Below the pieces are notes generated by a model. It had not been told where the DNA came from, ran no database searches, and saw only the letters and a list, made by a program, of their open reading frames with translations. DNA of 64,000 nt from Antechinus flavipes (taxonomy: Eukaryota): the NCBI RefSeq assembly GCF_016432865.1, contig NC_067398.1, positions 117,428,001-117,492,000 of the forward strand. The letters run 5' to 3'. Position 1 is the stretch's first letter. The number at the start of each line of letters is the position of its first letter. This document shows positions 10,027 to 63,499 of this stretch, one piece after another. The position numbers and the translations under genes were made by a program.

Positions 10027-10445
10027 AACAGATGACAAAGTACTTGCCTTCAGAGTATTGGGAGACTATGAAATAGAATGTTGCTTATACTGTTAGGATA
10101 GTTTTGCTTAACTTTTTAGGTTATAATAGATTTTCATCTTAAAGGGATGTGTAGCTGGGGATTGATAACAGATGACAAAGTACTTGCCTTCAGAGTATTG
10201 GGAGACTATGAAATAGAATGTTGCTTATACTGTTAGGATAATTTTGCTTAACTTTTTAGGTTATAATAGATTTTCATCTTAAAGGGATGTGTAGCTGGGG
10301 ATTGATAACAGATGACAAAGTACTTGTCTTCAGAGTATTGGGAGACTATGAAATAGAATGTTGCTTATACTGTTAGGATAGTTTTGCTTAACTTTAGGTT
10401 ATGATAGATTTTTATCTTAAAGGGATGTGTAGCTGGGCATTGATA
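10027..10445. repeat. Tandem repeat, 3 x 140 bp
   Basis: The unit AACAGATGACAAAGTACTTGCCTTCAGAGTATTGGGAGACTATG...GTAGCTGGGGATTGAT starts at 10027, 10167 and 10307. Copies 1 and 2 differ by about one base; copy 3 differs by about five changes. Confidence 0.95.
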
Positions 10446-14600: not shown

Positions 14601-17600
14601 TCGAGGCTGCCTATTTCGGAGACGATGGCTGGAGGTAGCCCCAGGAGGAACTCGAGGAGGAGCTGGGGGCCTTGGGCAGCGCTGACCGTGCCTCAGCAGC
14701 CGAGGAATCCTACTTGGGCGTTCTCCCCGAAGCAAACCCCATCTGGCCAATGCCTGGGCAGCCCCAGGAGACAGGTGAGCAGCTAATCCCCTCCCAGCCC
14801 TAGCCAGTTGCCAGTTCCACCCTTTGTACAGGGCCCAAGCCTGGGCCAGTAAAGCCAAGGGATTTCGGGGCCGGTGTGGACGCCCGCGGCGGGGTCCCGG
14901 GACTGGCAGCCGACTTCGGAAGCTATCCTTGTTCGTCTTAGGGTAGAGGGCAAAGAGGCCCCGGTCACCTACAGCCCCACAGCCCTGTAAGGTCCGAAAG
15001 GCTGATGGGGATAGGCGTAGTAGGATGCGCAGCCAGATCCTGGACAGTTCCCGCCGAAGCTTTGGGCCCTGTTGTCTTAACCAGCTGCCTCCAACTGCCA
15101 CAGCTGCTAAGGGCAGGGCTAAACCTGGCCAAGCTAAGAGCCAAGCAGCCCCAAGGCCTAGGGGCACCCCAGCAAGGCCCCTTAACCAACTCAGCCCTAG
15201 CACTGCTCCCAGGGCCACCCCCTGGGCCAAGAGCAGGAAAAAGCTGGGGGACATGTGCAAGGCTGTGCAGAGCAATAAGTATGAGGCCCCTAGTCCCACT
15301 AATCCTACTTCCAAAGCCAACAGGGCAGCCTGCAGGCCACCTCCACCCTGGGCTGCCAAGAGTGGGAGCAGTAGTAATAGCAGTAATGGCAAGAGGCCTG
15401 GGGAGGAGCCCACAGCAAAGGAAAGCCCAGCTAGAAGGCCATGGCACAAAAGTCCTAGGAGCTGACTAGAAAGGCTCAGTCTTATGGGACCAGGTGGGGG
15501 CTCAGGAGGAATCTCGGGGGAAGAACAACCATCCCCAGGATCTCTGGGAGTCCCAATGGGGGCTTCTTCATCCTCATCCTCCTCCAGGACTGGGGGCAAA
15601 ACTGGCCCCTGGTCCCATCCTAGCTCCAACTCCTCCCCCATTATACCCCACTCTTCCTTCCCCCACAACCTCCACTCCTCAGCCTCTTCCTGGCCGACAA
15701 TCCTTCGCTCCCTGGAGCTGGGGGACAGGGTTTTGGGATCCTCAGGTTCCTCCCCATGGGGCAACCTCCACGTCTGGTCTCCCAGAATCTTCCGCTCCCC
15801 AGAGCTGGAGGACAGGGCCACTACCTCTTTGGCCTCCTCCCCCACAATGCTCCGCTCCTCTGGCCCTAGAGAGGCCCTATCCCCTTCCTCTCCCAGAATC
15901 CTCCGCTCTTGGACAGCTGTTTCCTTCTCTCCCAGTGTCCTGTGTTCCTGGGCTGCCTCCTCTCCTAGCAGGCTCCGTTCCTCCAATCTGGGGCTGCTAC
16001 TGGGCAGCTCCCAAGTCTGCTGTTGTCCCAGGGATCCAGAGCTCGGGTCCAGGGCCTGAGGGGTAAGGGATTGGGGGGTTGGGGGGCGCTCATCAGGACG
16101 TACTTTGAGGCTCTTGGGCTGCTGGCGGACTTGGGCAGCGTGCTTCTGGCGCAGCTCCTGCTCACGCCGCTTGTTGTACTCCAGCTGGTTTCCCAGCTCC
16201 GTCTGGTGCTGCAGACGGGTAAGCTCAGCTCGGGTACGCTGCACAGCCTGGAGCTGTCTCACCTCCAGTTCCCGAGTCGACTCATGCTGCCTCAGCAGCA
16301 GTGCACACTCGAGGTCCTTCTGAGTCTGCTTCTTGTTCAGGTCCTGGTGGGGTAGGGAAAGGGTGGAAGGGCATAGCAGTGGGGTCAGGGTTGGGGGATG
16401 GTTGGGGAAAGGCCTTAGAGAAAGGATAGGGATGGAGGAAGGTGACATCTCAAAAGGGAGCCACAAATTACCAAGGGCTTCTCTGGGGGGAATGGGAAAA
16501 CACCCAGCAGCAATGGGTCTATGAGGAGTGGAAGAAGAGCTTCTGTTGGGAAGCTTTTAGTGGGAAGAACAAGGAGGGAGAAGAGTAAGAGAGAGATGAA
16601 TGGGTAGGAAATGGGGAGGGAAGAATACAAGATAGAGGAATCTTAAAAAGGAAAGCCTACAAGGAGATATTGTTGAGGAAAAATAGAAACAGAAGAATGA
16701 GCAAGCTGAGAAGAAGAAAGCGGGTAATGAGTGGGAAGACTTGGGAATTCGGGGAAGAAAGAAGACAGATCACTGAAGTAAAGAGGTACAAGAGAAGCAG
16801 GAAGGAGAAAGGCAGAGAAGAGGTCAGAAAGGAGCTATAAGGAATAGGAAACAGAGAAAAGTAGAAGGGATGGGAGAAAAAAGCATCAAAAGGGACAGGA
16901 AAAGGAGTGGAAGAGATGGGAATGTGGTGCCAGGTCCAGGCTTACCTCCCGCAGCAGGTCCTGATCCAGGCTGTGGCGGGCTAAGAGCATTTTCCGCTTG
17001 TACTGGCGGCACTGCAGCTCAAAGTACTGGCGTTGGCGCCGCAGCAGCCCAGCCTCCTCCTCTGCTTGGCACTGCTGCAGCTGTTCCTTCTGGCGCAGCA
17101 GCCACTCGGCTTTCTCCCTTTTGGGGGTGCTTGGATTCTCCTGAAGCTCCTAAGCAGGGCATGGAAAGGCCCACTGGAGGTCCCTCAGGACCAGCTCCAC
17201 CAAATCTCCTCTGGATGTTCTGTCATCCATCCCACCAATTCCATTTCTCCTCTCTTGTCCTGCTTCTATCATTTACACTTGTCTTTTTCCCAATTTCTTC
17301 TCCTCCCACATGTAAAAAAGGGGTAAAAGAGTGGGAGGACATCAGGGAAGGAAGAGGATGAGGGTAAGGAAAGAGGGAGATGGAAGGAAAATAGGAAAGG
17401 GGCCAGGAAAGAAGGGGAAATGTCTAGAAGTCTCCTTTATTTCCTGCTCTCATCTTCCTTCTCTCTCTCTTGTCTTTCTTCATCCCTCTCACCTCCTTAA
17501 GTTGTTCCTTCCTCAGCTTGTAAGTACGTTTCTGCGCTTCCAAAAGAGCGGCTAGCTCCTTCTTCTGCTGGCCTAAAATGTGCTGCTGAAACTTGCGCTC

Positions 17601-20600
17601 CTCTGCCTGGGCGGCGCGGGCCTCTTTTTCCCCAATGGCCTGGTGGCGCCGGGCCAGTTTTTCTGCCTCAGCCCCAAAGCCGGCACGCTGGGCCTCCAGC
17701 TCCCGTTGCAGCCGGGCACTGTGCTCTTCCCGCTCACCCCGAAGCCTTGATTCCAGGGCCAGCAACTGCTTCTGGTGCTGCCGCCGCATTCGCTTATAGC
17801 CACTCAACTGCTCCCGTAGGGCCGAGTCCTGCTCGTGCTCCTGGATCTGACGACTCACCTGGGTTCAGAGAGCACAAGAAGAAAGGACTCAGTCAGAGAA
17901 TACCAGAACTAAAGGTTGCTGGTCTTGGCTCTTGGTCCTAACTCACCAAGGAGGCGGTTCGGATGGTGGCAAAGTGATCCCGGTTTCGACAATAGGCCCG
18001 TCGACGGGCAGAAGAGGAAGAAGCTGGAGGCTGAGGGGCCTGTAAGGGGCCTGGGGGTACCTCTGGCTGATAGGGGTCATCATATAGATTTTCAGGGCCC
18101 TAGAGAAAAGAAGGAGAATGAGGTACAGATGTTTTCATGGACCCAAGTTCTTGGGACCAAGAACCTAAGCGATGGAGGTAAAAAGACAAATAGACAGCTA
18201 GAAAAAGGCACACTTTATAGGCCCAGATTCCTGAGTTTTCAAATAAAGACCCTTCTAAGCCAGACTGCTAAGAAAAAGTAGCACTAAGACATCTCTCAAT
18301 TGACTCAGACTGACTTTCCAAGATTTGTTTATTGCTAATGCTTACATCAGGTTCCCCTAACTTAGTCCCCACCGCCTGGTCTGTTTCCCAAAGCAGAACA
18401 TGCTAAGAAGACACTGCTTACAGGGAGTCGGTGGATGATAGAGCTGTGAGAGGTGACTGTATGTTCACCTTCCTGCATCATGGCCATCTCTCCAGTCTCC
18501 GGGCCTTCCTCCTCCTCCTCCTCCTCCTCCTCTTCTTCATCTTCGTTGTCAGATGCATCTGCTAGGCTATTAACAGAACTGCTCTGACTGGAGGCGCTGA
18601 TAGACATACTGGGCACTGAGTGGCTGCTCTCCAGGCTAGTTAGTGTCCCTGCCCGGTGCAGGTAGGGCTCAGTCTCCTGGGAACACAGAGTGTGCATTTA
18701 AGGACAGTCATGGAAGGGACTGGAGTAAGAGCTAGTATATGCCAGGAAGGCCTCAGGATTAGGAGGAGGGGGATGAGGACACAGAGTGAGCTGAGGACTG
18801 CTGGGGTAGAAATTATTGAGGTGAAGCTGGGGAGCTGAGAAAGGGAACAGCAGAAACATAACTAATGCTGGGACAAAAAGCATTGTTGGAGTTACACAGG
18901 TCTAATCATAACACCTACTCAAATACCTCAAAGGCTCCCCAATGCCTAGAATAAAGGCCAGATTCTATCCTTGTATTCACAGCACCCTAAAACCTAGCTC
19001 CAGCGTACCTATGCAGATTTAGCTTCCATTACTTTGCTACCCAACATACATCCTATACTCCAGCCAAACTAGATAAATTGCTATTCCCCAAATATACCTT
19101 GTCATTTCCTTCCTCCACATTTTTACTTATTCTTTGCCATCCATTCTGCCTAAAATGTCCTCCCTCCCCCTTCCCACCCCACAAACCCAAGTTCTGACTC
19201 TTGACATCCTCCTACACTTTTAAGGTGCTGCTCAAATGTCATCCTTCCCATAGTCTTCCCTATTCCCCTAATATATACAAAAATTACTTCCTGAATCTCC
19301 ATGGTCTTCTGTATGAACTTATAGATATATGTCTTACATAACACCTTTCACAATCTGGCCTGTACTATAGTTATTTGTACATATTTCTTACCTCTTATCT
19401 CCCCTATCACAGTACAAGTTCCACAAAGGCAGGGACTATGTCTCAGTCATCTTTGTATTCCCACAGTGCCAACCCGAGTACAATATGCACAGGGTTCAAG
19501 TTCTGGTTTAGCCACTTAGTAGCTGTAAAGCCATGGGCAAATCACTCTCTGAGTTTGTTTCCTCATTTGCAAAATGGGAATACTGCTACTTGTACTGTCT
19601 ACCTCAATCATTGTGAAGAAAGCAATGTGTAAACTGTGAAGAACCTTAAAAATGTGAATGGTTATTACTGTACATACTAGCGGCAACAAATATTCACTGA
19701 GTGAATGGATGAGTGAGTAAATGTGAAACTTGGCCAGGAAAAGAATTGCTCACCTCCTCCTCCTCGGGAACTTCAGCGCTGGGGCCATTCTGTGCCTCCT
19801 GAAATAAGATCTTCTTCATTTTTCGATACTGTAGGTTATCTAGCTCCCGAACTGCATCCTTGGTCCTCTGAATCAAATCCATAATCACTGTGGGGGGTCG
19901 TTCCCGGAGTACAAAGCGGTGCTAAGAAAGAAAGGACACCTGGATATTAACCCTGCCCCTCTTGTCCTTTCCCTTTGTGGAATGTGGGCATTCTAAAGAT
20001 CAGATCTGAACTCTTTTCCCTATCAATGAAAGTCTAGCACTTCCCTTTGACAGGACACACCCTAATTTAGGCTCCCTTCCCAAGAGGGCCATGTTATCCT
20101 CCCTAAGGTCATCAAGCTTTCTAGCCTCTAGCCTCCAGCTCTCTGACTCTTGCTTTCACAAAGAAAACTCCCCTCCCTCTCCCAAAAAAAACCCTTCACC
20201 TTGAGTAGCACGTCGGAAGTTGGTCTGTCTTGAGGAATTTTTTGGAGACAAGAGTCAACAAAGTTTCGGAAGTACTCAGACCTGGAAGAAAGAACCAGCA
20301 AAACAGTGGAAACATCTGCTTTGACATGGTGCCTCTATTTTCCCAAACCTGGACCATCTTGTGAAGAGCCCGTTTTCTCACCAATGTCCAGACTGCAGCA
20401 CAGGGGACTCATTCTGTGCAATGTGGTATAAGGCACTCATCGCATTCATGTTAAACAGTGGTGGCTTCCGTTCCGCTGGGGAGAGGAAGGAGAAGGGATA
20501 CAGAGACCAGGACAAAGCAGAAAAGATAGGAGACAAGTCTGTAGGCAGACAAAGGAGCAGAAAGATGGGAAGAGAAGGGGGGAAGCTGAGGTCCCATTAC

Positions 20601-22518
20601 CTAATTCGATGCAAGTGATTCCCAAAGACCACACGTCTACCTTGCCATCATATTGCCCTTCATCCATGGCCAAGATCACCTCAGGAGCCATCCTGAAAAA
20701 AAAGGGTGAGCAAGAAAAGGAGCTGAATTGCACCAAGTCTCTGCTGCATAACCCTGAAACCTTGCTTTCTAACCCCTCCCCAACTCCTCTTACTTTAAAT
20801 CCTCCCCTACCTGTCTCCATATCCCAACCTTCACTGCCTCTCACCAGTACGGAGTGCCCACAAAGGAGTTGGCAGGTGCCATGATGGAGGCTGAGCCAAA
20901 GTCCCCTAGCTTGACCAAGCCTGGTTCTGACAATAGGATGTTCCCCGCCTTCACATCCCTGACGGGTAAAGAATATCAATCTGGGTTAATGGGATGTCTG
21001 GGCTGGGAGGGGATGATAAAAAAGATTTAATGAATGGGCTCAGGAATGGTACCTACCTGTGGATCATGTTGTGAGAGTGTAAATAGGCCAGGCCCTGTAG
21101 TGCACCATGGGTTACAGCTGCAATCTCTACCTCCTGAAGGGGCTTCTTATGAACTAATGATAATGATGAAACAACTCACATTATGTAGTATTTTAAGATT
21201 TGCAAAGAGCTAGGAAAGAAAGGGTTCCCCTTGCCTCTCTGGGCATTACCACCATTCCAACTTCCTTCCCTTTTTGTTAGCCTTCCAACTTCTCTCAGAG
21301 TTCCCTCATTAGCCTGGGGATGGGGTGGGGGTGTCACTCACCCTCTAGAAGGTCAGAGGCAGAACCCAGGCAATACTCCATCACCAGCTAAGGAAAAAGC
21401 CAAGAGTTAGAGGTAAGTAAGTCCACTAGCCTCTTTGACTCAACTCCTAACTATAGCCCAGCAGTTCCAAAAGAAAGCATTATGCTCACCAGCACCCCCT
21501 CATTAAATGCTAATTCTTTTGAGGACCAACAAGTCTCTTCCTCCATAAAAAGTTTTACCTGTCTTCATTCTCTTCCTGATCTATTACATTCTAAGGCTTT
21601 ATCATTAATCTTGATACTTAATATTCCATTCTAAGTTTTTCATTTTGTCTCCCCAACTAGTTAGTCTCTGAATTCCTTAGGACTAGAAACCATGAATATC
21701 TTCTTGCCTTATTGTCATTACTATACTTCCACTCCCCATCCCAACACTAAGCCAGATGTTCATAAATTTAATTTGGTAAAAATGGGACTAGGTCAAGTCT
21801 GGAGTTAGGGGGGAGGGAAGAGTGAGTTTAAGAGTCCCTACTTACCCAAGCAGTATGTTCCCTCAGGTAACAGCCTCGGTATTGGATAGTATTTGGATGC
21901 CGAAGCTTCTGCAGAAATCGCACCTCCTTGATGATATCTTGCCATTTCTACAAGAATAATCAAGATAGAGGATAAACTTGGGCAAGCAGATGGGGTTATC
22001 TATAGGCATATGACCCCAGAGCCCTGGTTGCTGTTTCTATCCTTAACCCTACCCCTCCAGACTCTACATACCTCATTAGACTGCTTCCCACTATAGGACA
22101 TCTTCTTGATGGCAACAACCTCACTGCTCCGGACATCACGAGCCTAGAGGGCCGTAGGGTTGTAAGGGGAGGGTTCTGCAATAGGGCCAGGACCCCAGAA
22201 GAAAACTAGGAAGGAGGCGAAACAGTGGGAGGATGGGCTAAATTAGCTGAGGGGCAGCAGGATGACATCCTGGGAAAGAATTTCAGCATAAGCCTGAGAG
22301 AGATCAGGAGCCTAAGGAAGTGGGAAGGGAAAAGAGGGAACAGCATAGCACAACATGACAAGGTGGGTTGGGAAAAGCCCACTCACAAAGTAGACAGCTC
22401 CAAAACTGCCATGGCCAATCTCCCGGAGATCAGAAAATAGTTTTTCAGGGTCATCCTTGAAGAAGAGTTCAGCCACATCTGGATCCTTCAGGCTCCCAGC
22501 CCGGCCCCCTGCCGGCAT
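11652..22518 (-). CDS. TAOK2: TAO kinase 2, beta isoform (about 1044 aa)
   Basis: Exons (minus): 22387-22518, 22072-22143, 21846-21947, 21342-21387, 21057-21153, 20845-20958, 20601-20692, 20382-20475, 20200-20281, 19754-19921, 18422-18676, 17947-18099, 17493-17858, 16946-17149, 16104-16343, 12668-12880, 12293-12475, 11652-12173. Ste20 kinase motifs GHGSFG, VAIKK, HRDVKAGN, DFG, GTPYWMAPE, followed by coiled coil; ends [18 protein letters not shown] on the minus strand at 10649-10654. Confidence 0.96.
14580..16343 (-). CDS. TAOK2: TAOK2 alpha-isoform composite terminal exon (read-through of the internal donor at 16104; full alpha about 1246 aa)
   Basis: Open from [10 protein letters not shown] through KSLK|VRPD to ...RALPPWR*TGA at 14580. 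It contains the hydrophobic membrane region ([42 protein letters not shown]) and a basic amphipathic tail. It has its own AATAAA on the minus strand at 14141-14146. Confidence 0.94.
18900..19725 (+). mobile_element. Old L2 3' fragment interrupted by a MIR-like SINE
   Basis: L2-like GGCAGGGACTATGTC...GTATTCCCACAGTGCC and a GAATGGATGAGTGAG tail; MIR core GTTTCCTCATTTGCAAAATGGGAAT near 19555-19580. Boundaries are approximate. Confidence 0.5.
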
Positions 22519-25104
22519 GTCGGCCCCGTGGGGGACGGGGATTGGGGCCCAGCCTAGGGTTTAGAAATAATCTTGGAAATAGGTATTTCTATTGCTAAGG
22601 GGATATTTAGGATGGGGGTAAGAAGTTGGGTGGAGAGGGTGGGTGGGGAAATCCTTAGAATTGGTACAAGACCCCAGGTTTCCATCTCCTCCCCCATTCC
22701 TTTGTTGAGGGCAAGGCACTGTTGAGGACCAGCAGGGGCAGAGTGGAAACTACATTTAAACACCAAAAAAGAAGTTGTCATGGCAACGGAAGAAGGGGGT
22801 GAGGAAAGATGGTCCCAGAGTTCATAAAACTGCTGGGAATGTTCCTAAAATCCTAGAGTCTTAAAAATCACCACCCCAACCCACCTCTTTGCACACTGAC
22901 TTCCTAAGATCTCTTGGCCCTCTAAAGATCTAGAAATTCTATTTTCCAATCCTCAATCTCAAATTCTAAGTCTCCTTTTCCCTCCAATCTTGAGCTCTTC
23001 CCTTCTTTCCCAAAAGCTGCCCAGCTATCCTACTGCTTCTGTTCTCTGTACCACTCCCTCTACCTCCCCCACCCCCCATCTCTTCTACCCTGAAGGAGAA
23101 CAGGAAGTGGCTAGGCCGGACACTGTGGAAATCCGGCCATTGTCAAACCCGTATTCACTGGGGATTAGGGGTGGGAGAGAAGAGAAAGGGTTCTAGAAAC
23201 AAGCGTGTAATGGTAAAATCACAGAAATAAACCCATCTTGTCTGGCTTTCAAGGTTCTCCATAATCTGAACCTACATCTCTTACCCAGTGCATCTTTATC
23301 TCCCACTATTTCTCAAGAAGCACTTTTCACTCCAGTCTAGCCAGTTTCTTCACTGTCCCCACTCTGGGCCCAGCTCCAGTTCCATCTCCTTAATAAAGGC
23401 CTTTCCTGGACACCCCCAACCATCAATCACCTATCTTTTTTAAGGTCTTGGAACATTTATAATCTATATCACATAATCTGAAACTTAATTATATTCTCCT
23501 ATTGTTCTCTCTTGTTTCATGTCAGTTCCCTACTTCCCACAAGCAGATTGTAAACTCCTTGGGGCATGAAGCTATCCTATCTTCACTGAAAATACAGGTT
23601 TTGTTCAAAGACTTTCTGCCTGATTTATCTTCATCTATAGGTAGTATAAATTTTAGCCCGTCCATTTCTCTTGGCATTCACACAAGGGACATTGTCCACC
23701 TATCATCCCACAAGTAGAGAAGTTCAACTTGCAATACTGAGTTTGATGTTTTCTCAGGACTTAAAGGTATGAAACAAAGACCTAGAGAAAAAATACCTTC
23801 TCCTTGTTCATCCAAGCTTCTCTCCCCTAGACTGAAAGGGACGTCACCAAAACTATATGGGCCATTAGAAGTGAAAATTAAATTTCTCCCCACCTCAAAC
23901 TCCCAAATTACCCTGAACACAGTGACCCACAGCCTGAGGACTCCAACAAAACTACAACTAGGCCTGGCAATTAGCCAAATGAAAATTAGATTCCTCCCAG
24001 GTATCTCAGAGTCCAGTTCCTAGTAGAGTGCCTGGCACATATAAATACTTACTGATTGGTTGATACAATGTAAGGTCCTTGAAGGCAAGAATTATTTTGA
24101 TTTTCTATCCATAGAGTGCCTGGCACATAATTGGTAGGACCTTAATGAATGGATTGAATTGTTAAGGTATCCAAGTTAAGGCCCTGTAAATGTGGAGGCC
24201 AAATGTAGGAGGAAAAAAAGTATAAGGCAGCTGGGGTCTCCAAATTGCCCATCAAGATACTGACAACCTCTCTATCAACTGAGGTAAGGGGGATGGAATG
24301 GAAAATACCAGAGGCGAAATTTTCATCTCATTCTTAATGTACATCTGGCCTCCTACCTCCTGGTCCCCATTCTAAACCTTATGATGTCAAACAAAAAGAG
24401 ACAGAAGGAGTTAAGAATTGAAACACTATGAATGGAAAGTACTCTTCCTCCATGTATATCTCCCTCTTTTTAACATAAAGAGACAAATCCTCTAAATACT
24501 TCTTGCTTACAGGGCAATATGGATGCAGGTGACCCACACAATCATCAAACATTCACCAAACAAATCAGAAATCTGTCTCCTACCTCAAGAAGGGATTTAA
24601 TCATCGATCAAAGGAATAACACAAAAAGGTTCAATCCAGGGAAGATGCCCCTTCCTAAAGACACTTCACTTATACCATCAGAATGCTGTCACCTGAGCCC
24701 CCCACTGAGGTGAAATGGTCCCTGCAGTCCCCAGGCAGAGTTGTCACAAGCTACCAGCACCCTGAATGCCAGACCAAAGGCTGAGCATTCCGGGATTTCG
24801 CCGTCTGGACAAGGGATGGGAACAGGAGAGGGGACCAACCTGCCTCTCCGCAGGAGGGCGCTCCCTCTCTATGACTACTAGTAACTCTTTACGTTTCGAT
24901 TTAAGGTTTGCAAAGTATACAATGCGCTTTCTTCAAAATAAGGGGGAGGTAGTACAGTTTACAGAGAAGGAAAACGAGGCCCTAGGAGAACGAGTAACCT
25001 TCCTACAATCACATACAGTCAGTTAAGGTGCAATCGGGGGCTCAGCCCAGGCCCCCTACAAGTGCAGCACGCTGTCCCTCAAACAAGGCGGGGTGGGGTC
25101 TTAC

Positions 25105-26220
25105 CTGGAGGGGGTCGCTACGGTGCCCCAGCGTCTCCGCCGTCGCCTCCTCCTGGAGTCCTCCAGTGGCTCCGGGATCACTGGGAGAGGGGGAAGGAGA
25201 CTCCCCACCCCCTCGCTGCCTCTTCCTCGGCTTTGCCCCAATCCCAGGCTGGAGCGGGGGCGGGAGGAGAGCTTAAGAGCCCCCTCCCCACCCCCCACTT
25301 CCTCGGGTGACAGGGGGGGAGCGCCTGACACTCCCCCCCACCCCCGATGTCCTCTTGGGGATGTTCCGACGGCGAATGACAGGCCGGCAAGTGCCTCCCA
25401 GCCGACCTCCCCGGGCGCCCCGTGGGGCGACGGCGGCTGGGGCGGAGGGGCGGGTGACAGACCCGCGACCCCCACCCCCGCTCCGGCTTCCTCCTTCCCC
25501 CCTCTCTCCACCAGGGGGAGGCGGGAAAGGCTAGAGCTGACCCTGCCTGCCCGCCCCTCCCTCCCTCCTTCCCTCACCGGCTCCCTCCTGCTGCTGCTGC
25601 GGCTGCTTCCCCCGGCCTGCTAGGCTTCTCACAACCTTCTTCCGTTCCCTTCTTCCCTTCTCTTCCCTTCCCTGAGCTCGCCGGCCTGTCTGACCCTCGG
25701 TGGCTGATCCTCTATTAGTCCTCTCAGTCTGTCTCTCTCCCTGTCTCTCTCCCTCTCTCGCTTCCCCCCAGTTCCAAGATGGTGGCCGGGCGGGAGCGCG
25801 CAGGCGCGGTAGGGGAATACCGGGCCAAAGAAGGCGGGTCCTGAAGGGAGGAGCCCCAAAGGAAACCTCCCTCCCGCACCCGCCGGCCTCGCCGCCACAG
25901 TAGGGCTCTCGCAACCTAACAGGCTTGAGGGCTCCTAGAGTGCGCGCGCGCGCTTCCGCCACGCGGACTCCGGATGGGAGGAGGTTGGAAGGGGGCGGAG
26001 CCCAGGGTGCCAATCCCCTCCCCCTCCTGTCCCCAAACCTCCAGCAGAAAGGGGAAGAGAAGATAGCAAGAGATAGGTCGCACGCGCTCACCCCGCCTCA
26101 AGTCCCAAGCCTGTTGCTAGGGGAAGCTTTGAGAGGGACGGCCTAAATAGAACCGAGACTGAGATTTACGCCTGCGCGGGAGGTATTGGGCGGGGTCAAG
26201 AGAACTGGCGTGCTAGAGGA
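25105..26220 (-). promoter_or_regulatory. TAOK2: TAOK2 non-coding exon 1 and CpG-island promoter
   Basis: Strong donor CAG|GTAAGA at 25105/25104 (minus). CpG-rich from 25030 to 26220. The exon 2 acceptor is at 22553, with 35 nt of UTR before the ATG. The TSS cannot be fixed from sequence alone. Confidence 0.75.
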
Positions 26221-32519: not shown

Positions 32520-34565
32520 AAGAAGGGGCATATCTTAAAGGAAGCCTGAAGTATTAGGGAGCAGAGGTGAGGAGCAAGTGCATTCCAGCTCATTCAAAAG
32601 CTGGAGTTGGAGTAGGGGATGACTGGGATTACCAAGATCAGTGAACAGTGCTAAGGACAAACCAGCAACCCTGCAATCTAACAGCAGGCTTTGGACAGTT
32701 AAAAAAAATTATACGCACATACCTATTATATACATATATACATATACATATATATATGAAGAGAATTTTTTTTAAGAGAATTCTTGGGACTTCCAGCCAA
32801 GATGGCGGAAAGGACACACACATCTACTTATTCTGTATCTTTGCTCTCAGAATTTATCTCATGACAGAGCCTCGGAATTAGTGCTTGACTGAAAAAAAAA
32901 TCAAAACACAAATAATTACCAACAGAAGACATTCCTATTGCTGTCCTGCTAGTGCCTCACTGCTACCCCTGCAGTCTTCTGAGGAAGCTCATTAATACCA
33001 TCCAGTCCCACCCCTCCAAAAAAATGTTTTTTTCCTAGTTTGTTTTCTTTGATTTTTTTTTGGCAAAATGAGTGAAAAATTAAAATGAACTCTAACTATT
33101 CATAGCGTCTATATATAGAGAGAGCAGACTTTAAAACCTGAGGATACTAAAAACAGACTGTCTCCAGATGAATCCCCAAAAAGGTCCTCAACACACAGGA
33201 CTCTCATAAAATTAAAAAGGCTCTCACAAGAGAACTAGAAGAAAAATGGGAAAAGGAAAGAGAAGCTTGGCAGGAGAGTCTGGATAAGTCATCCCACTCA
33301 TTTAAAGATAGAGTGGATAAAGAAATCAAATCCTTGAAAAACAGAATTAGTGAATTGGAAAAAGAAAATAGCTCTCTAAAAAATAAAATTGGCAAAATGG
33401 GAAAAAAATTCCATAGAACAAAACAACTCACTTAAAAACTCAATTGGACAATTAGAAAAAGATATTAAAAAAGTGAGTGAAGAAAATAATTCATTGAAAA
33501 TCAGAATTGAACAAATGGAATTGAATGACTCAAGGAGACACCAAGAATCAGTCAAGCAAACCCCCTCCCCCCCCACCTCAAAAAAATTAAACAATGGGAA
33601 AAAATGTCAAATACCTTCTTGGGAAAACAACAGATCTGGAAAATAGATCTAGGAGAGACAGTCTGAGAATTATTGGACTCCCTGAAAAATATGATGAAAA
33701 AAAGATCCTGTACACTATTTTTCTAGGAAATTATCAAAGGGAACTGCCCAGATGTTATAAGAAGAGAAGTTAAAATAGACATTGAAAGAATTCATCGATC
33801 ACCTACTGAAAGGGACCCTAAAATCAAAACTCCAAGAAATATAGTGGCTAAATTCCAGAACTATCAAGCCAAGGAAAATATAGTACAAGCTGCTAGGAAA
33901 AATCAATTCAAATATAGAGGAGCCACAATAAGGATTACCCAAGATCTAGCAGCATCCACATTAAAGGATCAAAGGGCGTGGAATATGATATTCCAAAAGG
34001 CTAAGGAACTTGGTATGCAACCAAAAATAACTTACCCAGACAAAATGAGCATCTTTTTCCAGGGAAGAAGATGGCATTCAATGAAATAAGCGAATTTCAT
34101 CTATTTCTGATGAAAAACTGGAACTAAACAAAAAGTTTGATCTACAAATATAGAACTCAAGAGAAACCTAAAAAGGTAAAAAGAAATCTTGGAAACTATA
34201 TTTCTGCTATAAAGATATATAAAGAGCACATGTATAATTTGTTCTAGAAACTAGAGATGGAAAAGAAAATGTATTAGAAAAAGGGTAAAATGGGGGTACT
34301 ATATCTCACGAAGAGGCAAAGGAAACCTATTATATCTGAGAGAAAGAATAGAGGAGGGTGAACATAGTGTGTATCTTACTCTTATCAGAATTGGCTTAAA
34401 GAGAAAAATATTAGACATATTTGATTTATGGTGAAACTTCTTCCACCTCATTGAAAAGTGGGAGGGGAAAAGTTAAAAGGGAAGGAGTAAGCTAAGCTGA
34501 AGGGAATACAGAAATCGTGAAGAAAAGGGATAAGATAGGGGTAGGAACTCTAAGGTGGGGGGAGG

Positions 34566-34917
34566 TATGATGACCGCATTAGCAACCAATACCTTAGAAT
34601 CAGCCGGAGTCAGGATAAGCAAAAGTCCTTAGTCTTTGTTCTTGGTCTTTAGAGGTAGGATTGAATTAGATGGAAGCAGAATCATGGAGAGTCCATGACC
34701 TTCCTTCTCCCTCATCTACTGCCAAAGTGACTCTGGCTAGTCTTACTCTACCTCCTAGTCCCCCCTACAATTCTCTGTATACACCAATCATCAAACCAGC
34801 ACAGCATAGTTTTTCCCAAGCATATGCCTATAGAGTATTGTCCAATCTGTAGTTAGCCTTAAGTTCTCGGCTGTCCTGACCTCAGTGCATCGACTCAAGA
34901 ATTTCAAGCCCATTACA
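34566..34917 (-). mobile_element. ERV 3' LTR
   Basis: Homologous to 41150-41502. The terminal CA is mutated to TA and the poly(A) signal reads AACAAA (34635-34640). Confidence 0.95.
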
Positions 34918-34933
34918 TCTCCCACTTTCTTTT
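34918..34933 (-). promoter_or_regulatory. Polypurine tract
   Basis: AAAAGAAAGTGGGAGA immediately upstream of the 3' LTR TG. Confidence 0.9.
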
Positions 34934-35293
34934 GTTTTAGAACACAGGTGGTCACACCATCCCTGACTTCTCAGGGAGGTGAGAACCCCAAAAAGGAGGT
35001 GATAATGCCCCATCCTGACTTCTCAGGAAGGGAGATGAAAAGCACCAAAGGGAAGTGAAGATTGCTAGCGGGTTTCTGGGCTGAAGGGTCTTATTAGAAA
35101 CAGGTATGCACAAACTCATCAGCATGTGAGGCATTACACAAGCACATAGCAACAATGCACAGGCTATTAGTGGTGACTCTCCCCACAGCCAGTGCAGGCT
35201 CAACATGGTATAACAAACATGAATTGTAAATACAAGTAGTGGTATAACAAACGATATAAACCAACATGGTGTTGTAAAAGATTTCCAGAAGTC

Positions 35294-35971
35294 CTAGAAG
35301 GAGGGTATGTCAACAATAGTCACACATACGCCTTCTTCAGCAGCCAAGAGATAGTCCAAAATCAATCTATTGTCCATTGCTTCATATGTCAGGGAATCCA
35401 ATGAACCCCACAAGTTTTTGAAGTCCTGCAAAGTCTTTTTATGTGTTAGGGAATCCAATGATTCCAGCAGATTTTGAAGTCCTGAAACAGTCTTATCATG
35501 TCTCAGAGAATCCAAGGATTCCTGAGGGTTTTCAAGTCCTACAACAGTCTTATCATGTCTCAGAGAATTTAATGATTCCTGAGAGTTTTGAAGTCCTACA
35601 ACAATCTTATCATGTCTCAGAGAATCCAGGGATTCCTGAGGGTTTTCAAGTCCTACAACAGTCTTATCATGTCTCAGAGAATCCAATGATTCCTGAGGGT
35701 TTTCAAGTCCTACAATAGTCTTATCATGTTTCAGAGAATGCAATGATTCCTGAGGATTTTGAAGTGCTACAACAATCTTATTGTGTCTCAGAGAATGCAA
35801 TGATTCCTGAGGGTTTTGAAGTGCTACAAAAATCTTATTGTGTCTCAGAGAATCCAATGATTCCTGAGGTTTTTGAGGTCCTCCAACAATCTTATCATGT
35901 CTCAGAGAATCCAGTGATTCCTGAGAGTTTTCAAGTCCAATAATTTTTGATGTCCATGAGTCAAATGCCAT
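35294..35971 (-). CDS. Env-TM-derived tandem-repeat ORF, 225 aa (10 x 19 aa plus ISD-like motif)
   Basis: ATG in strong context (GTTATGG), with no stop over 225 codons. Repeat consensus LENPQESLDSLRHDKTVVG; ends SLDSLTYEAMDNRLILDYLLAAEEGVC, which resembles the gamma-type ISD (QNRLALDYLLAxEGGVC). Expression is unproven. Confidence 0.6.
   Translation of the reverse strand: MAFDSWTSKIIGLENSQESLDSLRHDKIVGGPQKPQESLDSLRHNKIFVALQNPQESLHSLRHNKIVVALQNPQESLHSLKHDKTIVGLENPQESLDSLRHDKTVVGLENPQESLDSLRHDKIVVGLQNSQESLNSLRHDKTVVGLENPQESLDSLRHDKTVSGLQNLLESLDSLTHKKTLQDFKNLWGSLDSLTYEAMDNRLILDYLLAAEEGVCVTIVDIPSF
35366..35935. repeat. 57-bp minisatellite, about 10 units, inside the provirus
   Basis: Plus-strand unit approximately AAGTCCTACAACAGTCTTATCATGTCTCAGAGAATCCAATGATTCCTGAGGGTTTTC. 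Eight units are close to consensus and two terminal units are divergent. Confidence 0.97.
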
Positions 35972-36123
35972 AACTGCCAAGCTCTTTCAGTGGTGGGCAC
36001 AATCAGCAACGGAACCATCCGAAGTTTCTTGGGTCTTCTCCTTTGTTTCAAGGGTCTGCTCTGTTTCTCTTCAATGGACAAGGAGAATACGACTTGTTGG
36101 CACCCATCTGATTCCTTCTTCAT
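35902..36123 (-). CDS. 73-aa Arg-rich ORF directly after the env splice acceptor (Env signal peptide / Rec-Rem-like candidate)
   Basis: The acceptor TTTGCTTGTATCTTCACAG|ATG resembles the HERV-K env acceptor. The protein MKKESDGCQQ...KQRRRPKKLR...ERAWQLWHLTHGHQKLLDLKTLRNHWIL* has a basic tract and an AWQ helix like the MMTV Rem and HERV-K Rec leaders. This resemblance is from memory, not an alignment. Confidence 0.5.
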   Translation of the reverse strand: MKKESDGCQQVVFSLSIEEKQSRPLKQRRRPKKLRMVPLLIVPTTERAWQLWHLTHGHQKLLDLKTLRNHWIL

Positions 36124-38610
36124 CTGTGAAGATACAAGCAAACCCTCTCCCCAAGCAGTTAACCTATCTCGTTCCTTCCATTCACCACTTTCTGGATCTC
36201 TCCACATCACCTAGAAATTATCTAAAGATAGTGGAGCTGCTCGCACTGGATACTGCTCTTCCAGTGGGTTATAAAACCTGTCTGCCGGAGCCAGTGCATC
36301 TTTGTCAAAAATCAAGAAGTTAATAGTATAAAGAGCTAGATTTAGAAGTTCTCTAGGGTTAACTGTGGCTCCCCCTTTCTTTTGTTTTTGGAGGAGTGTC
36401 TTAATGTCTCTATTTCTCCTCTCTACTATTGCCTGTCCTTGAGGATTGAAAGGTATGCCAGTGGTGTATAAAATCTTATACTGTGCACAAAAGTGTGCAA
36501 AATGTTTAGAAGTATATGTTTTTATTGCTTGTGGCACACCCATAATTGCAAATGCTTGTATAAGGAATTCAGTGATCACTCGGGCTGTCTCTTTTGCTGC
36601 TGGTATTACAAAAGTGAATCCTGAAAAAGTGTCTACCACAATATGGATAAAAGACAGACGACCAAAAGATTTATAATAGGTCACATCCATTTGCCAAATT
36701 TCATTGGGTCTCAAACCATGAGGGTTCTTCCCTGGAGACAGTGTAGGAGCATGGAAAGGAATGCAAGCTGTACAGGCTTTTACTATGCTCCTAGCTTCCT
36801 CTCTTGTTATTCCAAATTGTAAATGTAAAACTCGAGCAGCCTGATGATATTTAAAATGAGATTCTTGGGCTTCCTAAAATAAAGGAGTGTTGGCCAACAT
36901 GGTTAGAAGGCTATCTGCTTTTGAGTTACCATCAAAAATAGGACCTGGAAGTCCATTATGAGAGTGGACATGCAAGATATAAATCTTACCTGGATGCTTT
37001 CTCACTTGCTCTTGAAGAGCTGATATATATTAGAGGCTACAAATTTTATTTGGGCTGTGGCAATTCTTTGTACCATACCTACTGAATAGGCTGAACCAGA
37101 TATTATATTTATATCTACTCAATAAAGTAAGAGCTAGAATGATTGCATACAATTCATTCTGCTGAGTGGACTGAAAGGAGTTCTGACTACTCTCATTATA
37201 GTTAAGTCACAAGAGTATACAGCACAAATATTATGTTTGGATGCATCTATAAAGATAATTGTTTCTTTAAGAGGAACTTTAGAAACCTTTTCTTCAAGAG
37301 TCCATTGCCAATTATGTAATAGTCTGGGGTTATCTTTAATGGAGACCTGTGTGTAAAATTTGGAGCCATGGCTAATAAAATTTGCCACTCTGGGATGGTC
37401 TCACAACACACATTAATTTGTGCATTAGTATAAAAGGTGTATATCTTGTCAGGTCTTATCCCAGATAATTGTACTGCTTGCTCAATGGACTTTAATAAAA
37501 TTCTAACCACAAACACTGGGTAAGGAGTAAGGCTTTGTTCTGGTTGTGCTGGGAGGTTCACCCACTCTATCACACTGTCTCCTTGATGAAGGACTGCTGT
37601 GGGTGCCTCTTGTGTAGCAAAAACTGATATTTCCAAGGGTTTTTGAGTGACTCTTTCAACCACATTGGATAAAGCCAGTTCAACTTCTCTCAAAGCCTCT
37701 TGAGCTTCTTTTGTAAGCTAGCATGGTAAGTTTAAAGCATTGTCTCCCCTTAAAATGTCATATAATGGTTGTAACTGATAGGTAGTCAAGCCTAACACTG
37801 CATGCATCCATTGGATATCTATATCAATTTCTGAAAGTCATTTAAGGTATTTAGGTTCTCTGTTTTTAAGGATAGTTTTTGTACTGTAAGCACCTTAGGA
37901 TATACTTCATATCCTAAATATTGAAAAGGAGAATGTCTTCGAATTTTTTTGGGAGCTATGTACAATTTGTAGTATCTTAGTGTTTCTATGGTCTTTTGTA
38001 GACATGCTTCTAACATTTGTTCCTCAGGTGCACATCCCAATATATCATCCATGTAATGTAATAACATAACTTTTGGAAATGCTTTTCTTACTGAAATAAG
38101 AGCAGCAGCAACATACATTTGACACATAGTAGGGCTGTTTTTCATCCCCTATGGCAAAACTGTCTATTCATATTTTTTATAAGGCTCAGCTAAGTTAACG
38201 CTGGGTACTGAAAAAGCAAATCTTTTCATATCTTCCTTATCTAGAGGGATATAATAGAAACAATCCTTAATGTCTATAACCCAAAAAGGCCATTCTCTAG
38301 GGAACTGAGTAGGACATGGAAGCCCAGGCTGAAGAATTCCCATAGTTTCCATCTGTTCGTTTACCTTTCTTAAATTAGTCAATATCCTCCATTTTCCAGA
38401 TTTCTTTCTTACAACAAATATGGGGGAATTCCAAGGATTTAGAGAAAGTTGTAAGTGTCCTTGGTCAAGTTGCTCCTGTACTATATCTAATAAGACCTGA
38501 ATTTTATCGCTACCTAAAGGCCACTGTTCTATCCACACTGGTGTATTAGTTTTCCATTGAATAGGAACAGATAAAAGTGTTGGCAGGCTTTCAACAACAG
38601 CCCTGCCTAA
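36071..38610 (-). pseudogene. pol: ERV pol (RT-RNase H-IN, disrupted)
   Basis: RT PVWIEQWPL, PWNSPIFVVRKKSGKWR, LQPGLP, IDIKDCF, LHYMDDIL, PFQYLG; RNase H IFIDAS; IN H-H-C-C finger, WQMDVT, PQGQAIVER. Multiple stops and frameshifts. Confidence 0.93.
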
Positions 38611-39420
38611 AAAACCAAAGTACTCATTTTTAATCCTAATTGTTGTAAAATGTCTTTTCCCCACAGATTGATGGGGATTTTTTCAACTATAAAAGGAATA
38701 AAAATTCCTGTTTCACCTTCAAATATCCATCTCAAAGGGATAGCACTAACTTCAGCTGCTCTTGATCCTCCTACGCCAGATCTATAGGTGTCTGCCTTAA
38801 TCTTTGGCCAGTGACTGGGCCAGTTGACACCTCTAATTATGATTTGCACCAATGTCTACCAATCCTTCTAATGGCATGCCATTTATATAGATAGTGAGCA
38901 TAGATTGGTCAGCTGTTACAGCTGCTGTCTAGTATATTCCTGGATTTTGTTGTTTGGAGTCAGAATTTGGGCGACTATCACCAGATTGCTTATTAGGAGT
39001 CTGTATCAGTAAACCTGATGCTACTACCTTTCCTGGTTGATAAGTTACACATTATCTACCTGTATTAGTGACTGCGATATTTACAAATTCTCCAGTTTCC
39101 CACATCGGTGTATGGATGGACACTGTTTTGTAAGTACACTCAGGAGGTGAAATGGTCACGTCTACTGTGCCTGGAGGCAAGGGATCCATAGGCTGGAGAG
39201 GAACAGATTTCACCTCTCCAGGGGGTATCTCAGTTGTCCCAGCTGCATACAACTCTATTCTCCCCAATTATAATCCCTTTCTCCCATCGGATGGCTTCCT
39301 AGCTGATTGGTCATGTCTGGGTACTGAATTTCTAGGCACTCCCTGAATATAGCATTGGGCACCATCATGCCCCAAGTGTTTTTTGCCTGGGGCCCTGGAG
39401 ATGGGCTCCTCATCCCGTTT
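38607..39420 (-). pseudogene. pro: ERV pro (degenerate dUTPase-like domain plus aspartic protease, disrupted)
   Basis: G GAA AAC slippery site near 39416-39422; dUTPase-position domain IELYAAGTTEIPPGEV...PLPPGT; protease GLVDIGA and NLWGKDILQQLG. Confidence 0.85.
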
Positions 39421-41009
39421 TCCTGAATCAATCTACATTCTGAGGCCTAATGAAAGCCTCTGTTGCATTTTGGACATGGGGTATTGGGTCTTGTTCTCCC
39501 ATCCTGTTTTCTCACTCTGTGAGAACATTGCCAACATTGAGCTTTCAGATGCCCTACTTTTTACCACATTGAAAGCATTGATGAGTGTCTCTGGAAGTCC
39601 CTTGCCAAAAGGGATCCTGTATTCCCATGTTTGGATCTTGGGAAGTCTGCATCATAGCCTGGTTATAAAAGGCATTTGTGCCCATTGTGGCACAGCATCT
39701 TATGATCTCCTCTAAAGGAGCATCCTTGCGTAGTCCTAGTATAATTCTTCTACAAACCTTATTAGCATTTTCTTTAGCAAGTTGCCTTATCATAATGTCT
39801 TTTACTGCATTTTCACCATTAGTTCATACGACAGCTGTCTGCAAATGTCCCACAAAATCAGCAAAGGATTCATTTGGCCCTTGTGCTATTTTTGTGAAGG
39901 CTTCACCCTTGTCATTTTTATTGGGGAGAGAAGCCCGTGGTTTGATAGCAGCAGCAGCAATTTGCTCATATGCTGCTAAGGGGTAATTAATCTATACTGA
40001 AATTTCTGCATAAGAACCTACACCTCTTAGTTGGTCATAGGTGATTGGAGGATTAACTCCCCTATGACTATTTTGTTGGGCATGATATCCTACAGAGCTC
40101 ACTATATTCAGAAAGCCACAACAAGTTTTGTCCAGGTTCTAAGCATGTCCTTGTTATAGATTTCCAATCCCTAGGGTTAAGACTTCCTAAGCCAAATTCT
40201 GTAATAACATCTTAACATAAGCTGATGTAGCCCCATAAAGAGTGCAAGTCTTTTTCAGGTCTTTGAGTATTTCTATATCAAATCCACTTTCTTGACATGA
40301 AGAGTTAAACTATTGAATCATAGGATACATACCAATTTTCAGATCACCTAAATTCTGTCCTTCTTCTGTGGCTTCTAAGTACGGCCTTTTGCAATCTGGT
40401 CATAGGAGAGGGTGGTTGCTGGGGAGGGAAGGTGCGCTGGTGTCACTGCCTCTCCCACTACTCCTCCTCCCTCCATCTGGGAAGATGAAGTTGATGGGGG
40501 CATGTCAAGAACCAGTTCCGGTTTAGGTAGGGTTGAACCACCACGCCCTTCACCACACCCTTCATCCTCACTTAATTCCCCATGCCCTCCTGTGATATTG
40601 CTTTTAATCCATTTTTTGTCTTCCTCTTTTTCCTCATACTTCCTCATCTGGCTATTCTTAGAATTTTTCTTTTTTCTATAACTTGCAGGATTCTTTAAGG
40701 CCAATTGTATTATGTTCTATGTATAGAATATTCCCTTGAAAATTGAACAAGGCCCTTTATCATTGTAGTACTCACATAGTTGCTCTCCTACCAGCTTCCA
40801 ATTATCTAACCCTATCTCTTCTTCCTTTAAGAACCAAGGGGACATGCGTTTTAATGTATCCAAGAGTCTAGTAATCTGCAACCAAGTTACAATTAAGCCT
40901 TGTCCCTTGATCAACTTAAGTATGCTTTCTATAGCACCCCCTTGGGGCGGGGGTGGGCGTGGGCTGAGGCTGGGGTTGGGGGAGAATCTTTTCCCAATAT
41001 CTGCCCCAT
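39400..41009 (-). pseudogene. gag: ERV gag (disrupted)
   Basis: Myristoylation start MGQILGKD at 41009; matrix WLQITRLLDTLKRMSPWFLKEEEIGLDNWKLVGEQL; MHR QGPNESFADFVGHLQTAV; two zinc knuckles (CFQCGK..., CPKCNRGFH.ASEC). Several stops and frameshifts. Confidence 0.9.
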
Positions 41010-41074
41010 TGTAGCTAGACAAGGATACTAGTTTAGCCCTTAACAAAGTAAGTTCCCTGTTTGTCTGTTAAAAT

Positions 41075-41083
41075 ACTCACCCT
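41075..41083 (-). promoter_or_regulatory. ERV major splice donor
   Basis: AGG|GTGAGT (junction 41081/41080) between the PBS and the gag ATG. Confidence 0.75.
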
Positions 41084-41129: not shown

Positions 41130-41147
41130 TCCACATGTTGGGCACCA
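41130..41147 (-). promoter_or_regulatory. Primer binding site, tRNA-Lys(1,2) type
   Basis: TGGTGCCCAACATGTGGA versus the canonical TGGCGCCCAACGTGGGGC. Two of the four mismatches are CpG decay. It sits 2 nt after the LTR CA end. Confidence 0.85.
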
Positions 41148-41149
41148 AA

Positions 41150-41502
41150 TGTGAAGACCGCATTAGCACTCTGGATGCCTTAGAATCAGCCAGAGTCAGG
41201 ATAAGCAAAAGTCCTTGATCTTTATTTTTGGTCTTTAGGGGTAGGATTGAATTGGATGGAAGCAGAATCTCCTCGACCTCCTTCTCCCTCGTCTACCGCC
41301 AAAGTGACTCTGGCTAGTCTTACTCCACCCCCTAGTCTCTCCTACAATTCTCTGTATACACTAGTCATCTAGGCAGCACAGGATAGTGGGAAGGACCATT
41401 TTCCAAGCATATGCCCATAGAGTGTGTCCAATCAGTAGTTAGCTGACGTGTTCGGCTGTCCTGACCTCAGTGCATCGACTCAAGAGTTTCAAGCCCATTA
41501 CA
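41150..41502 (-). mobile_element. ERV 5' LTR
   Basis: Minus strand TGTAATGGG...CTTCACA. It carries AGGTCA, ACGTCA, ATTGG and TATACA motifs and an AATAAA at 41221-41226, and is followed by a TT spacer and the PBS. Confidence 0.95.
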
Positions 41503-42195
41503 GGGAGGGACACTAAAAAGGGAGGGCTGTGAGAAGCAAGTGGTGCTCACAAGTTTAATACTGGGGAGGGGGGTAAGGGGGAAGGAAAGAAGAAAAGCAT
41601 AATCTGGGGATATCATGATGGCAGGAAATACAGAATTAGTAATTTTAACCATAAATGTGAATGGAGTAAACTCCCCCATAAAGAGGAAGCAGTTTGCAGA
41701 CTAAATTAAAAGCCAGAATCCTACAATATGTTGTTTACAGAAAATACACCTGAAGCAGGGAGATACATGCAGAGTAAAGGCATTAAAATGCAGACATACT
41801 TTTCTATTCTATTCATTTCTAGTATTCTCTTCTGTGAATGTATAGATTCCTATGAGACTAATGGGACTGCCGAATAGACTCCACTTTTTCTTCACCTCTG
41901 CACAGTCCAAGCCACAACTCAAGATTTCTATTTTTTTTGTCAATCTGATCTGCAAAACTGTTACCTTCTATAATAGTTATCTCCTCTGAGAAGGGGAACA
42001 GAATTATAGGAAGTAATATTGGGCATCTAACACCTAGGCCTCTCAATGACTTTAGACCTATCTAGCTTACAAAATAGCCACCAAAACTAGGAATCTCAGG
42101 ACCCATGTACCTAGAGTCAAGGAAAGAAATACAGAATAGAAACAAGGATTTGAAATCCAATCTAAAACATACCTAGAATACTTACCTGTTTACTA

Positions 42196-61876: not shown

Positions 61877-63085
61877 TCAAGGGTCAGGTGCAAAGACAAA
61901 ATCAAGAGCTTGTCTCTCAGCCCCAGCAACATTGGGATGCCAGAGGTCAACAATGAAGACCACCCGAGGGCCATCTTCTGGAGAGCCTGGAGACAAAAAG
62001 GAAGCAGAGGATTATAATTGTTCGGGTTTCATTCTTAAATCCAGATTTGGCCAAACCCCACTTTAGACTCCAAAATCCCATATTTGCAGAACTCTGTGTC
62101 TTGGTTACCATTGTGAGCTGCAGTGTGCAGGAAAGAATCATCCACGAGCAGGCAATGTCCCTCAGACCAGCACTGGGGCTCACCCCCAACAACTAATTCA
62201 CAACCAGGGGGAATCTTCAGGCCTGTTGGAGAAGGCCCAGGTAAAAATCAGAGGAGTCACCAAACTCAGAAATTCCTATCACTTCCCCAGATCTATAATC
62301 TTCCATTTTGCCCCAGGTTTGACCTAAACATCCTTAATTTACTACTTACCCAAGTGACAACGAACCCGAGCATTAGTGGGTCCACAGCGTCCCTCAAGTC
62401 TGGCTCCAGGCAGAAGAACAGAAAAACCAGCATTGCCAAAAGAATTGGCACTCACAAAGCTTCTCAGTCCTCTAAGAGCCCGATAAGCCCCTGGGCAGCG
62501 TCGGCAATTATTTGGCTGACACCGACCAGCCCTGTAGAGTAGGAACTGGTGGCAGCCAGGCGCCAAAGGAGAAGACCAACCCCGTGGTGGAGAAGATGTC
62601 CCTGAGAAATCCCAGCTCACAGTTCCAAAGTCCCGAAGAATGGCAGGGAAATTACTTTCTAGGAGTTCCACATCATGTCGCTGAGCATCCCGGGGCACAA
62701 ATGGAGCAGAAGGAAGATCCGGCAAAAAGAGTAGAGCTGGGCGTTGGATTCCTGGACCTCCACCGAGGCTGCTGCTGCCCTGAGCTGCCCTCCTCACCCT
62801 CCCCATCCCAGCCCAGGAGTAACGCTGGGCATAGGCCCGAAGTCTCCTACTCACCAGGCCTTCTGCCCCAGGCCCTTCACCAGGCTCCCTGGTAATCCCT
62901 GACCCTTGACCTCCAGCCTCCGAACCTCTACCAGCTCCAGCACCCCCTCTGCTAGCACCCCCTACCCCAGGGATTGGGGTATCCTGTGAGCCCAATCGAT
63001 AGCAGTACCAGAGGAAAAGGGAAGTGAGGGCCCCAAGGATCAGAGTGAGGGCTGGGCAGGCCAGGGGTAGTGGCCAAGGGGGCAT
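61877..63085 (-). CDS. ASPHD1: Aspartate beta-hydroxylase domain-containing 1, about 319 aa
   Basis: Exons (minus): 62350-63085, 62109-62222, 61877-61986 (960 nt). Signal-anchor [20 protein letters not shown]; [18 protein letters not shown]; DDSFLH; VDLWHPNV; ends DFVFAPDP*. Kozak CCACCATG. Confidence 0.95.
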
Positions 63086-63499
63086 GGTGGAAATGGAGTG
63101 GGGAGTCTAGTCAAAAGGCCCCAGGCATTCCCTAAATCTTTCCCTCCTCACCCTGCCCTACTGGCTCTTTCCTCTAACAACCTCAGATTTACCCTCCTAG
63201 GGCCTTACTCCATGCTGTCTTCCTCATTCTCCATCACCTTTCCTTCCTGGCCCCCTTTTTCTGGGGTTTTTGCCTCCACGATTCTGCTTCCACTTTTCAA
63301 TTTCTCTCTTCTTCCATCAGCAGTTCCTGTCCCACCTCATCATGCAGCCCTCAGATCCTGAAGTGGATCCTAATCCTCTGCAGCAGCTTCCACCTTCCCT
63401 CCACAACCCTCTCCTTCCTTTCCTCTCTTCTTCTGTCCCTCTCCACCTCCTCGTCTCTCCTTTTCCCCTCCCCTTAACTCCGCTCTATCCCTTCTATTC

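Follow-up and report, generated by a model that had tools for sequence, protein, structure and literature searches.

In HERV-K the Rec frame overlaps the end of pol, and the mouse elements IAP and MusD carry the RNA elements RTE and MTE. Rem, Rec and Rej come from env genes of the beta type, and exchange to a gamma env has been argued to lose the Rev-like protein; the group with beta pol and gamma env exports its RNA by a cis element and host NXF1, not by a Rev-like protein (as set out in PMC3621094). In MMTV SP, residues W57-Q58 are needed for function, according to PMC8725593. MEBrv 3 is presented in the main text of PMC11334065 as a dasyurid, envelope-less element with an immunosuppressive domain (ISD) beyond pol, which is still amplifying.

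The window analysed here, a stretch of 64,000 nucleotides from Antechinus flavipes, contains a decayed, betaretrovirus-like provirus of 6.9 kb on the minus strand (Table 1), which carries a splice donor, an env-type acceptor, a 73-codon frame and a tandem array. Both flanks show the same 6-bp target-site duplication, CCTCCC. This copy is old and broken, since its LTRs differ in 37 of 340 aligned columns and it contains no frame of at least 250 codons. Host genes flank the provirus: a protein kinase gene (about 12000-26000, minus strand), which we take to be TAOK2-like, a BTB/KCTD gene (56500, plus strand) and an Asp/Asn-hydroxylase-like gene (62300-63100, minus strand). TMEM219, considered as a host gene enclosing the provirus, gave no match within the window. 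Another tandem repeat, with a 140-nt unit in about three copies, two of them 99% alike, is located at 10024-10443. The splice sites of the provirus are probably the old env splice of a MEBrv 3-like betaretrovirus that has lost its envelope. For the 73-codon frame the probable explanation is that it overlaps the integrase tail in +1 without being under selection, and it would be the relic of an Env leader at most.

Table 1. Features of the provirus, in its 5' to 3' order; positions are those of the window.
Feature	Position	Strand	Remarks
5' LTR	41150..41502	(-)	TG...CA ends; target-site duplication CCTCCC at 41503-41508
Primer-binding site	41130..41147	(-)	Presumably tRNA-Lys type; one of the two upstream ATGs that are out of frame falls here
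Major splice donor AGG|GTGAGT	41075..41083	(-)	Exon end 41081, cut 41081/41080; GTGAGT in 9/9 young copies with mapped donor; used in family RNA
gag-pro-pol, broken	37247..41016	(-)	Matrix, capsid C-terminal and RT pieces; Pfam Gag_p10, Gag_p24_C, RVT_1
Integrase zinc finger, core and C-terminal domain	36078..36873	(-)	Stops and a frameshift just upstream of the acceptor break the frame; Pfam
First env-type acceptor ...CACAG|ATG	36123..36140	(-)	Cut 36124/36123; CAG in 113/116 rows; 8 RNA reads and one contig
73-codon frame	35902..36123	(-)	Codons 1-44 overlap the tail of integrase in +1; roughly the final 12 codons come from the first repeat unit, read out of frame
Integrase C-terminal tail	35987..36121	(-)	Early stop at 36071-36073 in the locus copy
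Second acceptor, 55 nt downstream of the first	36068..36090	(-)	AAG in the locus copy, CAG in 101/116 rows; 19 RNA reads, three runs
Basic tract KQRRRPKKLR	36019..36048	(-)	Read from the purine-rich codons for ETKEKTQET in the integrase tail
57-nt tandem array, 9.2 units	35416-35938	(-)	19-residue repeat in the TM frame
Immunosuppressive-domain remnant, gamma-type TM	35324..35377	(-)	Three gamma-type TM structures, E 0.44-1, the sole three matches at E up to 10
Polypurine tract and 3' LTR	34566..34937	(-)	3' LTR 34566-34917; CCTCCC duplication 34560-34565

The donor and the acceptor that the preliminary description had quoted are both present as given, the latter reading TTGTATCTTCACAG|ATG. 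The first acceptor is placed inside the coding sequence of the integrase C-terminal domain (GRGFACIFT). The proposed junction of 41081 to 36123 stands at the level of the family, where joints of donor and acceptor, including AGG|ATG, occur in RNA, and for the locus itself it is a prediction. The reads stem from other copies, since most of them are less than 95% like the reference. This reference, L007, is a natural copy with a donor-acceptor distance of 1253 nt. The RNA sample consists of three raw-read runs (X21, X22 and X23) of one study on organism B, which carries the family; about 6% of each run was read. The donor is joined to the first acceptor in eight reads of X21 (three AGG|ATG, five AGG|GTG) and in none among the joints listed for X22 and X23; one contig in X1, with just 18 letters on one side, contains this joint as well. 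The second acceptor (L007:1689) outnumbers the first, at 19 reads against 8, and is joined in 3, 13 and 3 reads of the three runs. In all joint reads the first mate has the orientation expected of sense RNA with most stranded library types. The splice is real for the family, since reads with a donor-acceptor joint occur in family RNA, and the two sites are an env-type splice of a known envelope-less family.

When RNA was aligned to the window element itself, none of the 15 joints listed, out of 126, fell at these sites. The RNA joints may have a DNA origin; a weak search for genomic copies with the spliced joint gave none among 26 loci chosen from the P0003 search. In two devil gene models (P0003 and P0004), which are predictions, leader sequence appears to be fused to the 73-codon frame near the second acceptor, with the basic tract retained. 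In the locus copy, out-of-frame ATGs occur at two sites upstream of the donor, 83 and 56 nt from it, and would shadow the copy's own ATG. No ATG open to the donor was found in the nine of nine young leaders with a mapped donor (L091 being scanned over a shorter stretch). A separate feature of organism B is a set of hundreds of reads per run that jump back by about 500 nt within the integrase (window 36373-36878), where the depth is three to four times as high. A circular RNA may underlie these back-joints, or an integrase fragment repeated in tandem in DNA.

The stop-free frame of 73 codons, with KQRRRPKKLR and the residues quoted downstream of it, was found as described. The basic tract likely arises where Glu/Lys codons in the tail of integrase are read with a shift of one base, and the Leu-rich tail is the first 57-nt repeat unit read out of frame, the same peptide appearing again in later units. 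The preliminary description had overlooked that the acceptor lies within integrase coding sequence, that the Leu-rich tail is derived from the repeat and that two out-of-frame ATGs precede the donor. The absence of a hydrophobic h-region, which it had noted, applies to the locus copy (best 9-residue hydropathy 2.2), but two young copies reach 3.5. A loose Leu-rich export pattern matches just the hydrophobic stretch LRMVPLLIV of the frame, and the Leu-rich tail is without a match.

Both strands of the window together have 18 occurrences of pyrimidine-rich YAG|ATG, two of them followed by a frame of at least 70 codons. When the integrase tail was resampled synonymously, with the residues fixed, 10-16% of draws had no stop in the +1 frame over 44 codons. 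A basic tract of equal density was obtained in 30% of resampled tails of the locus copy (3-100% over four copies), and an open frame together with a dense basic tract in 5% of draws (0.3-12% over four copies; post hoc). Homologues of the frame were absent from the 90% collection, and no usable Atlas match was obtained. The representative library gave three matches, of which two are the devil gene models, members of the same family, and the third is a repeat protein that matches the tail only. Weak searches with the integrase tail and the TM remnant found no longer homologues, viral contigs gave no match, and Pfam gave none for the frame of the locus copy.

Neither the lineage differences nor the shared variants give a sign of selection on the 73-codon frame within the overlap. 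Synonymous and replacement differences between lineages number 5/1 and 6/3 in the integrase frame (p 0.003 and 0.005) and 1/5 and 2/7 in the overlapping frame (p 0.80 and 0.66); comparison of the two young lineages gives 3/3 and 1/5, respectively, all these counts being small, the lineage pairs non-independent and the copy sample biased by the queries. The overlap mirrors a control stretch of integrase, with 15/3 in frame versus 2/16 off-frame. Among shared variants pN/pS is 0.38 in the integrase frame versus 1.99 in the overlapping frame, and suppression at integrase synonymous sites in the overlap is not significant (Fisher p 0.14-1.0). Beyond the integrase stop, where the TM frame is shut, the 73-codon frame shows 3 synonymous and 4 replacement differences and no stop (p 0.11), a non-significant pattern that leans slightly to constraint.

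Copies were compared in 116 rows, obtained from four similarity searches of 30 loci each after removal of four duplicates; this sample is query-biased, and up to three pairs may represent one copy. The integrase tail is open over at least 44 codons in 112 of the 116 rows. The old lineage (19 rows) has the ATG in 14 rows, and ATG together with an open frame in three. A GTG line of 60 rows has the ATG in one and an open frame in 54; its array is short, and its TM frame is interrupted by a stop that the rows share. All 37 rows of a second young subfamily have GTG and are without the standard array and codons 45-73 of the frame (L047 has a divergent array); this subfamily is amplifying, with 40 of 40 scored matches being 99-100% alike. 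Full-length copies with open pol have AG|GTG in 12 of 12 cases. Each of the three lineages keeps the frame open (73, 73 and 64 codons), and no stop is fixed in any of them. The ATG is present in 1 of the 97 younger rows and absent from 96, and codons 45-73 are missing in 37. Array-less young copies (L033, L038, L042, L046 and L112-L140) have LTRs of about 600 nt, a 909-codon pol and a frame that runs for 64 codons into an ISD-like remnant.

Stops in the old copies are mostly TGA, recurring at codons 10, 27 and 47. They are likely due to CpG decay after insertion and so were not counted against function. The old copies would yield a strong AGG|ATG G context, and such reads are present. Since the young lineages are without the ATG and one of them is without the array, an AUG-started 73-aa product and the array are dispensable in cis for amplification. 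With low probability, the 73-aa product may be supplied in trans to copies without the ATG.

Each repeat unit folds into one hairpin, but folding is only slightly better than in shuffles, the whole array having z -1.67 (4 of 100 shuffles being as good) and the single units z -0.3 to -1.0. Rfam returned sub-threshold matches only, none of them over the array. The preliminary description had joined the protein and the hairpin array into a two-component export system; this proposal is not supported, the folding being weak and the array and the C-terminal half of the frame being deleted in one amplifying subfamily. One copy (L013 / L107) has about 17-19 repeat units and an open TM frame of 312 codons.

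A genome DNA search gave 4535 first-look candidates for the family, and the integrase search found many copies with pol frames of 907-909 codons. Of the 12 such copies that were fetched, seven have full LTR pairs, which are 98.7-100% identical. Young copies with both LTRs measure about 6.7-7.3 kb. The number of candidates, the many long pol frames and the matching devil gene models agree with MEBrv 3 as a dominant high-copy family of dasyurids with young intact copies. By its anatomy, the family fits MEBrv 3 of dasyurids as characterised in the main text of PMC11334065. That paper was the only one on MEBrv 3 returned by the literature search, which found no paper on a Rev-like protein in the family; the words 'splice', 'export' and 'tandem repeat' are absent from its main text. 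No env-bearing member of the family was seen among 30 gamma-env and 6 beta-leader loci, where integrase similarity stops before the tail and the 73-codon frame is unmatched. As no env-bearing relative was found, a relic of an Env leader and a purely incidental frame are indistinguishable.

The reading of the preliminary description, a marsupial Rev-like regulator, would mean that the frame encodes, or in the older ATG lineage encoded, a Rem/Rec-like protein from a beta-type Env leader, which binds the 3' region and exports unspliced RNA, perhaps in trans. The real splice with its AGG|ATG joint, the frame open across lineages, the two devil models and the basic tract followed by AWQ as in MMTV SP (PMC8725593) agree with it, and in a MAFFT alignment the basic tract, PT and Leu of the frame align with beta-type leaders. 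It is nevertheless improbable. The HERV-K_REC Pfam profile has no match in six copies of the frame at E up to 10, although as a positive control two of three beta-type Env leaders of the genome match it (best E 0.00038); run against the genome, this profile gave one weak match, in another beta-ERV, and none in the MEBrv 3-like family. The profile comparison that had been suggested, performed here with the beta-type Env leaders of the genome, gave no relationship (probability 0.2%, E 0.36). The unconstrained frame in the overlap, the ATG missing from nearly all younger rows with no open upstream ATG in their leaders, the loss of the array from a young amplifying subfamily and the gamma-type env remnant speak against it as well. 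There is little chance, too, that MEBrv 3 took a gamma-type envelope, kept the front of a beta-type Env leader and after env loss made a mini-Rem (basic tract and AWQ), either by the AGG|ATG splice or by joining an LTR start to the second acceptor in the manner of P0003, acting in trans on thousands of copies. If true, an envelope-less retrotransposon would have a Rev-like protein that outlasted the exchange as well as the loss of its envelope. Decayed beta-type ERVs of the genome (L142:1501-1659, L144:1492-1725 and L146:1495-1755, minus strand) have Env leaders with PTWG motifs, two of which match HERV-K_REC; these leaders are better candidates for a marsupial Rec-like domain.

The splice sites could instead act at the RNA level only, the donor and two acceptors setting the share of unspliced genome RNA with no protein made. 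GTGAGT is kept at every mapped young donor and CAG in most rows at both acceptors (Table 1), and the joint reads per run (11, 13 and 3) are not small compared with the sense depth at the donor bin (22, 23 and 14). The latter share is unreliable because divergent leaders align poorly, the joints amount to about 0.5-2% of read depth at the acceptors, and conservation of the acceptors is not independent, since both lie within integrase codons; we consider such a role unlikely. Still further from probable is a TM-frame peptide, with 19-residue units ending in the ISD, as the real product of the spliced RNA. The unit does keep the frame, its spacing in old copies being 57 in 33 cases and 114 in 9, and in the locus copy the TM frame is open for 230 codons (35294-35986, minus strand), through all repeats into the ISD. 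Yet the open frame extends as far as the ISD in 2 of 19 old rows, open stretches of about 50 codons contain most of the 150 scored ISD matches, and the frame has a shared stop in the young array-bearing lineage and is deleted in the other. An old env splice in an envelope-less element remains the preferred explanation. The donor and acceptor would be former env splice sites, still used at a low level in family RNA; env would have decayed through internal deletion that spared the acceptor, a TM heptad piece and the ISD, and the heptad piece may then have expanded into the 57-nt array, after which the element could have multiplied within cells, as mouse IAP does. The acceptor has likely been retained because the same bases code for integrase.

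These data add modest anatomy to the most abundant dasyurid ERV family: an env splice still in use at two acceptors, a tandem array derived from TM, and two young subfamilies, of which one carries the array and the other does not. As to the RNA export route of an active envelope-less betaretrovirus, the evidence points away from the array and the 73-codon frame.

The frame resembles Rem, Rec and Rej in being short and basic, in beginning at an env acceptor and in overlapping the end of pol. It differs from them in having no profile match, no selection, no fixed start codon and no cleavable leader followed by SU, and what is left of env is of the gamma type. The AWQ that follows the basic tract is reminiscent of A56-W57-Q58 of MMTV SP (PMC8725593), a likeness of three residues that serves as a lead and not as a test. 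The MPMV-type CTE viruses likewise combine beta pol with gamma env, in the account of PMC3621094, but a CTE was not found here. Mouse IAP and MusD share the sequence of envelope loss and intracellular amplification (IAP as compared in PMC11334065), and the difference is that no cis export element was identified here, with no Rfam match over the array and one subfamily without it. MEBrv 3 is similar as well. The splice, the array and the two young subfamilies are without description in the main text of PMC11334065, and the shared features are a beta-type gag-pro-pol of about 7 kb (about 7.3 kb in MEBrv 3) with no env frame, a gamma-like ISD beyond pol, for which the E-values here are weak and the matches the sole ones, and a very high copy number with young copies that have open pol and identical LTRs.
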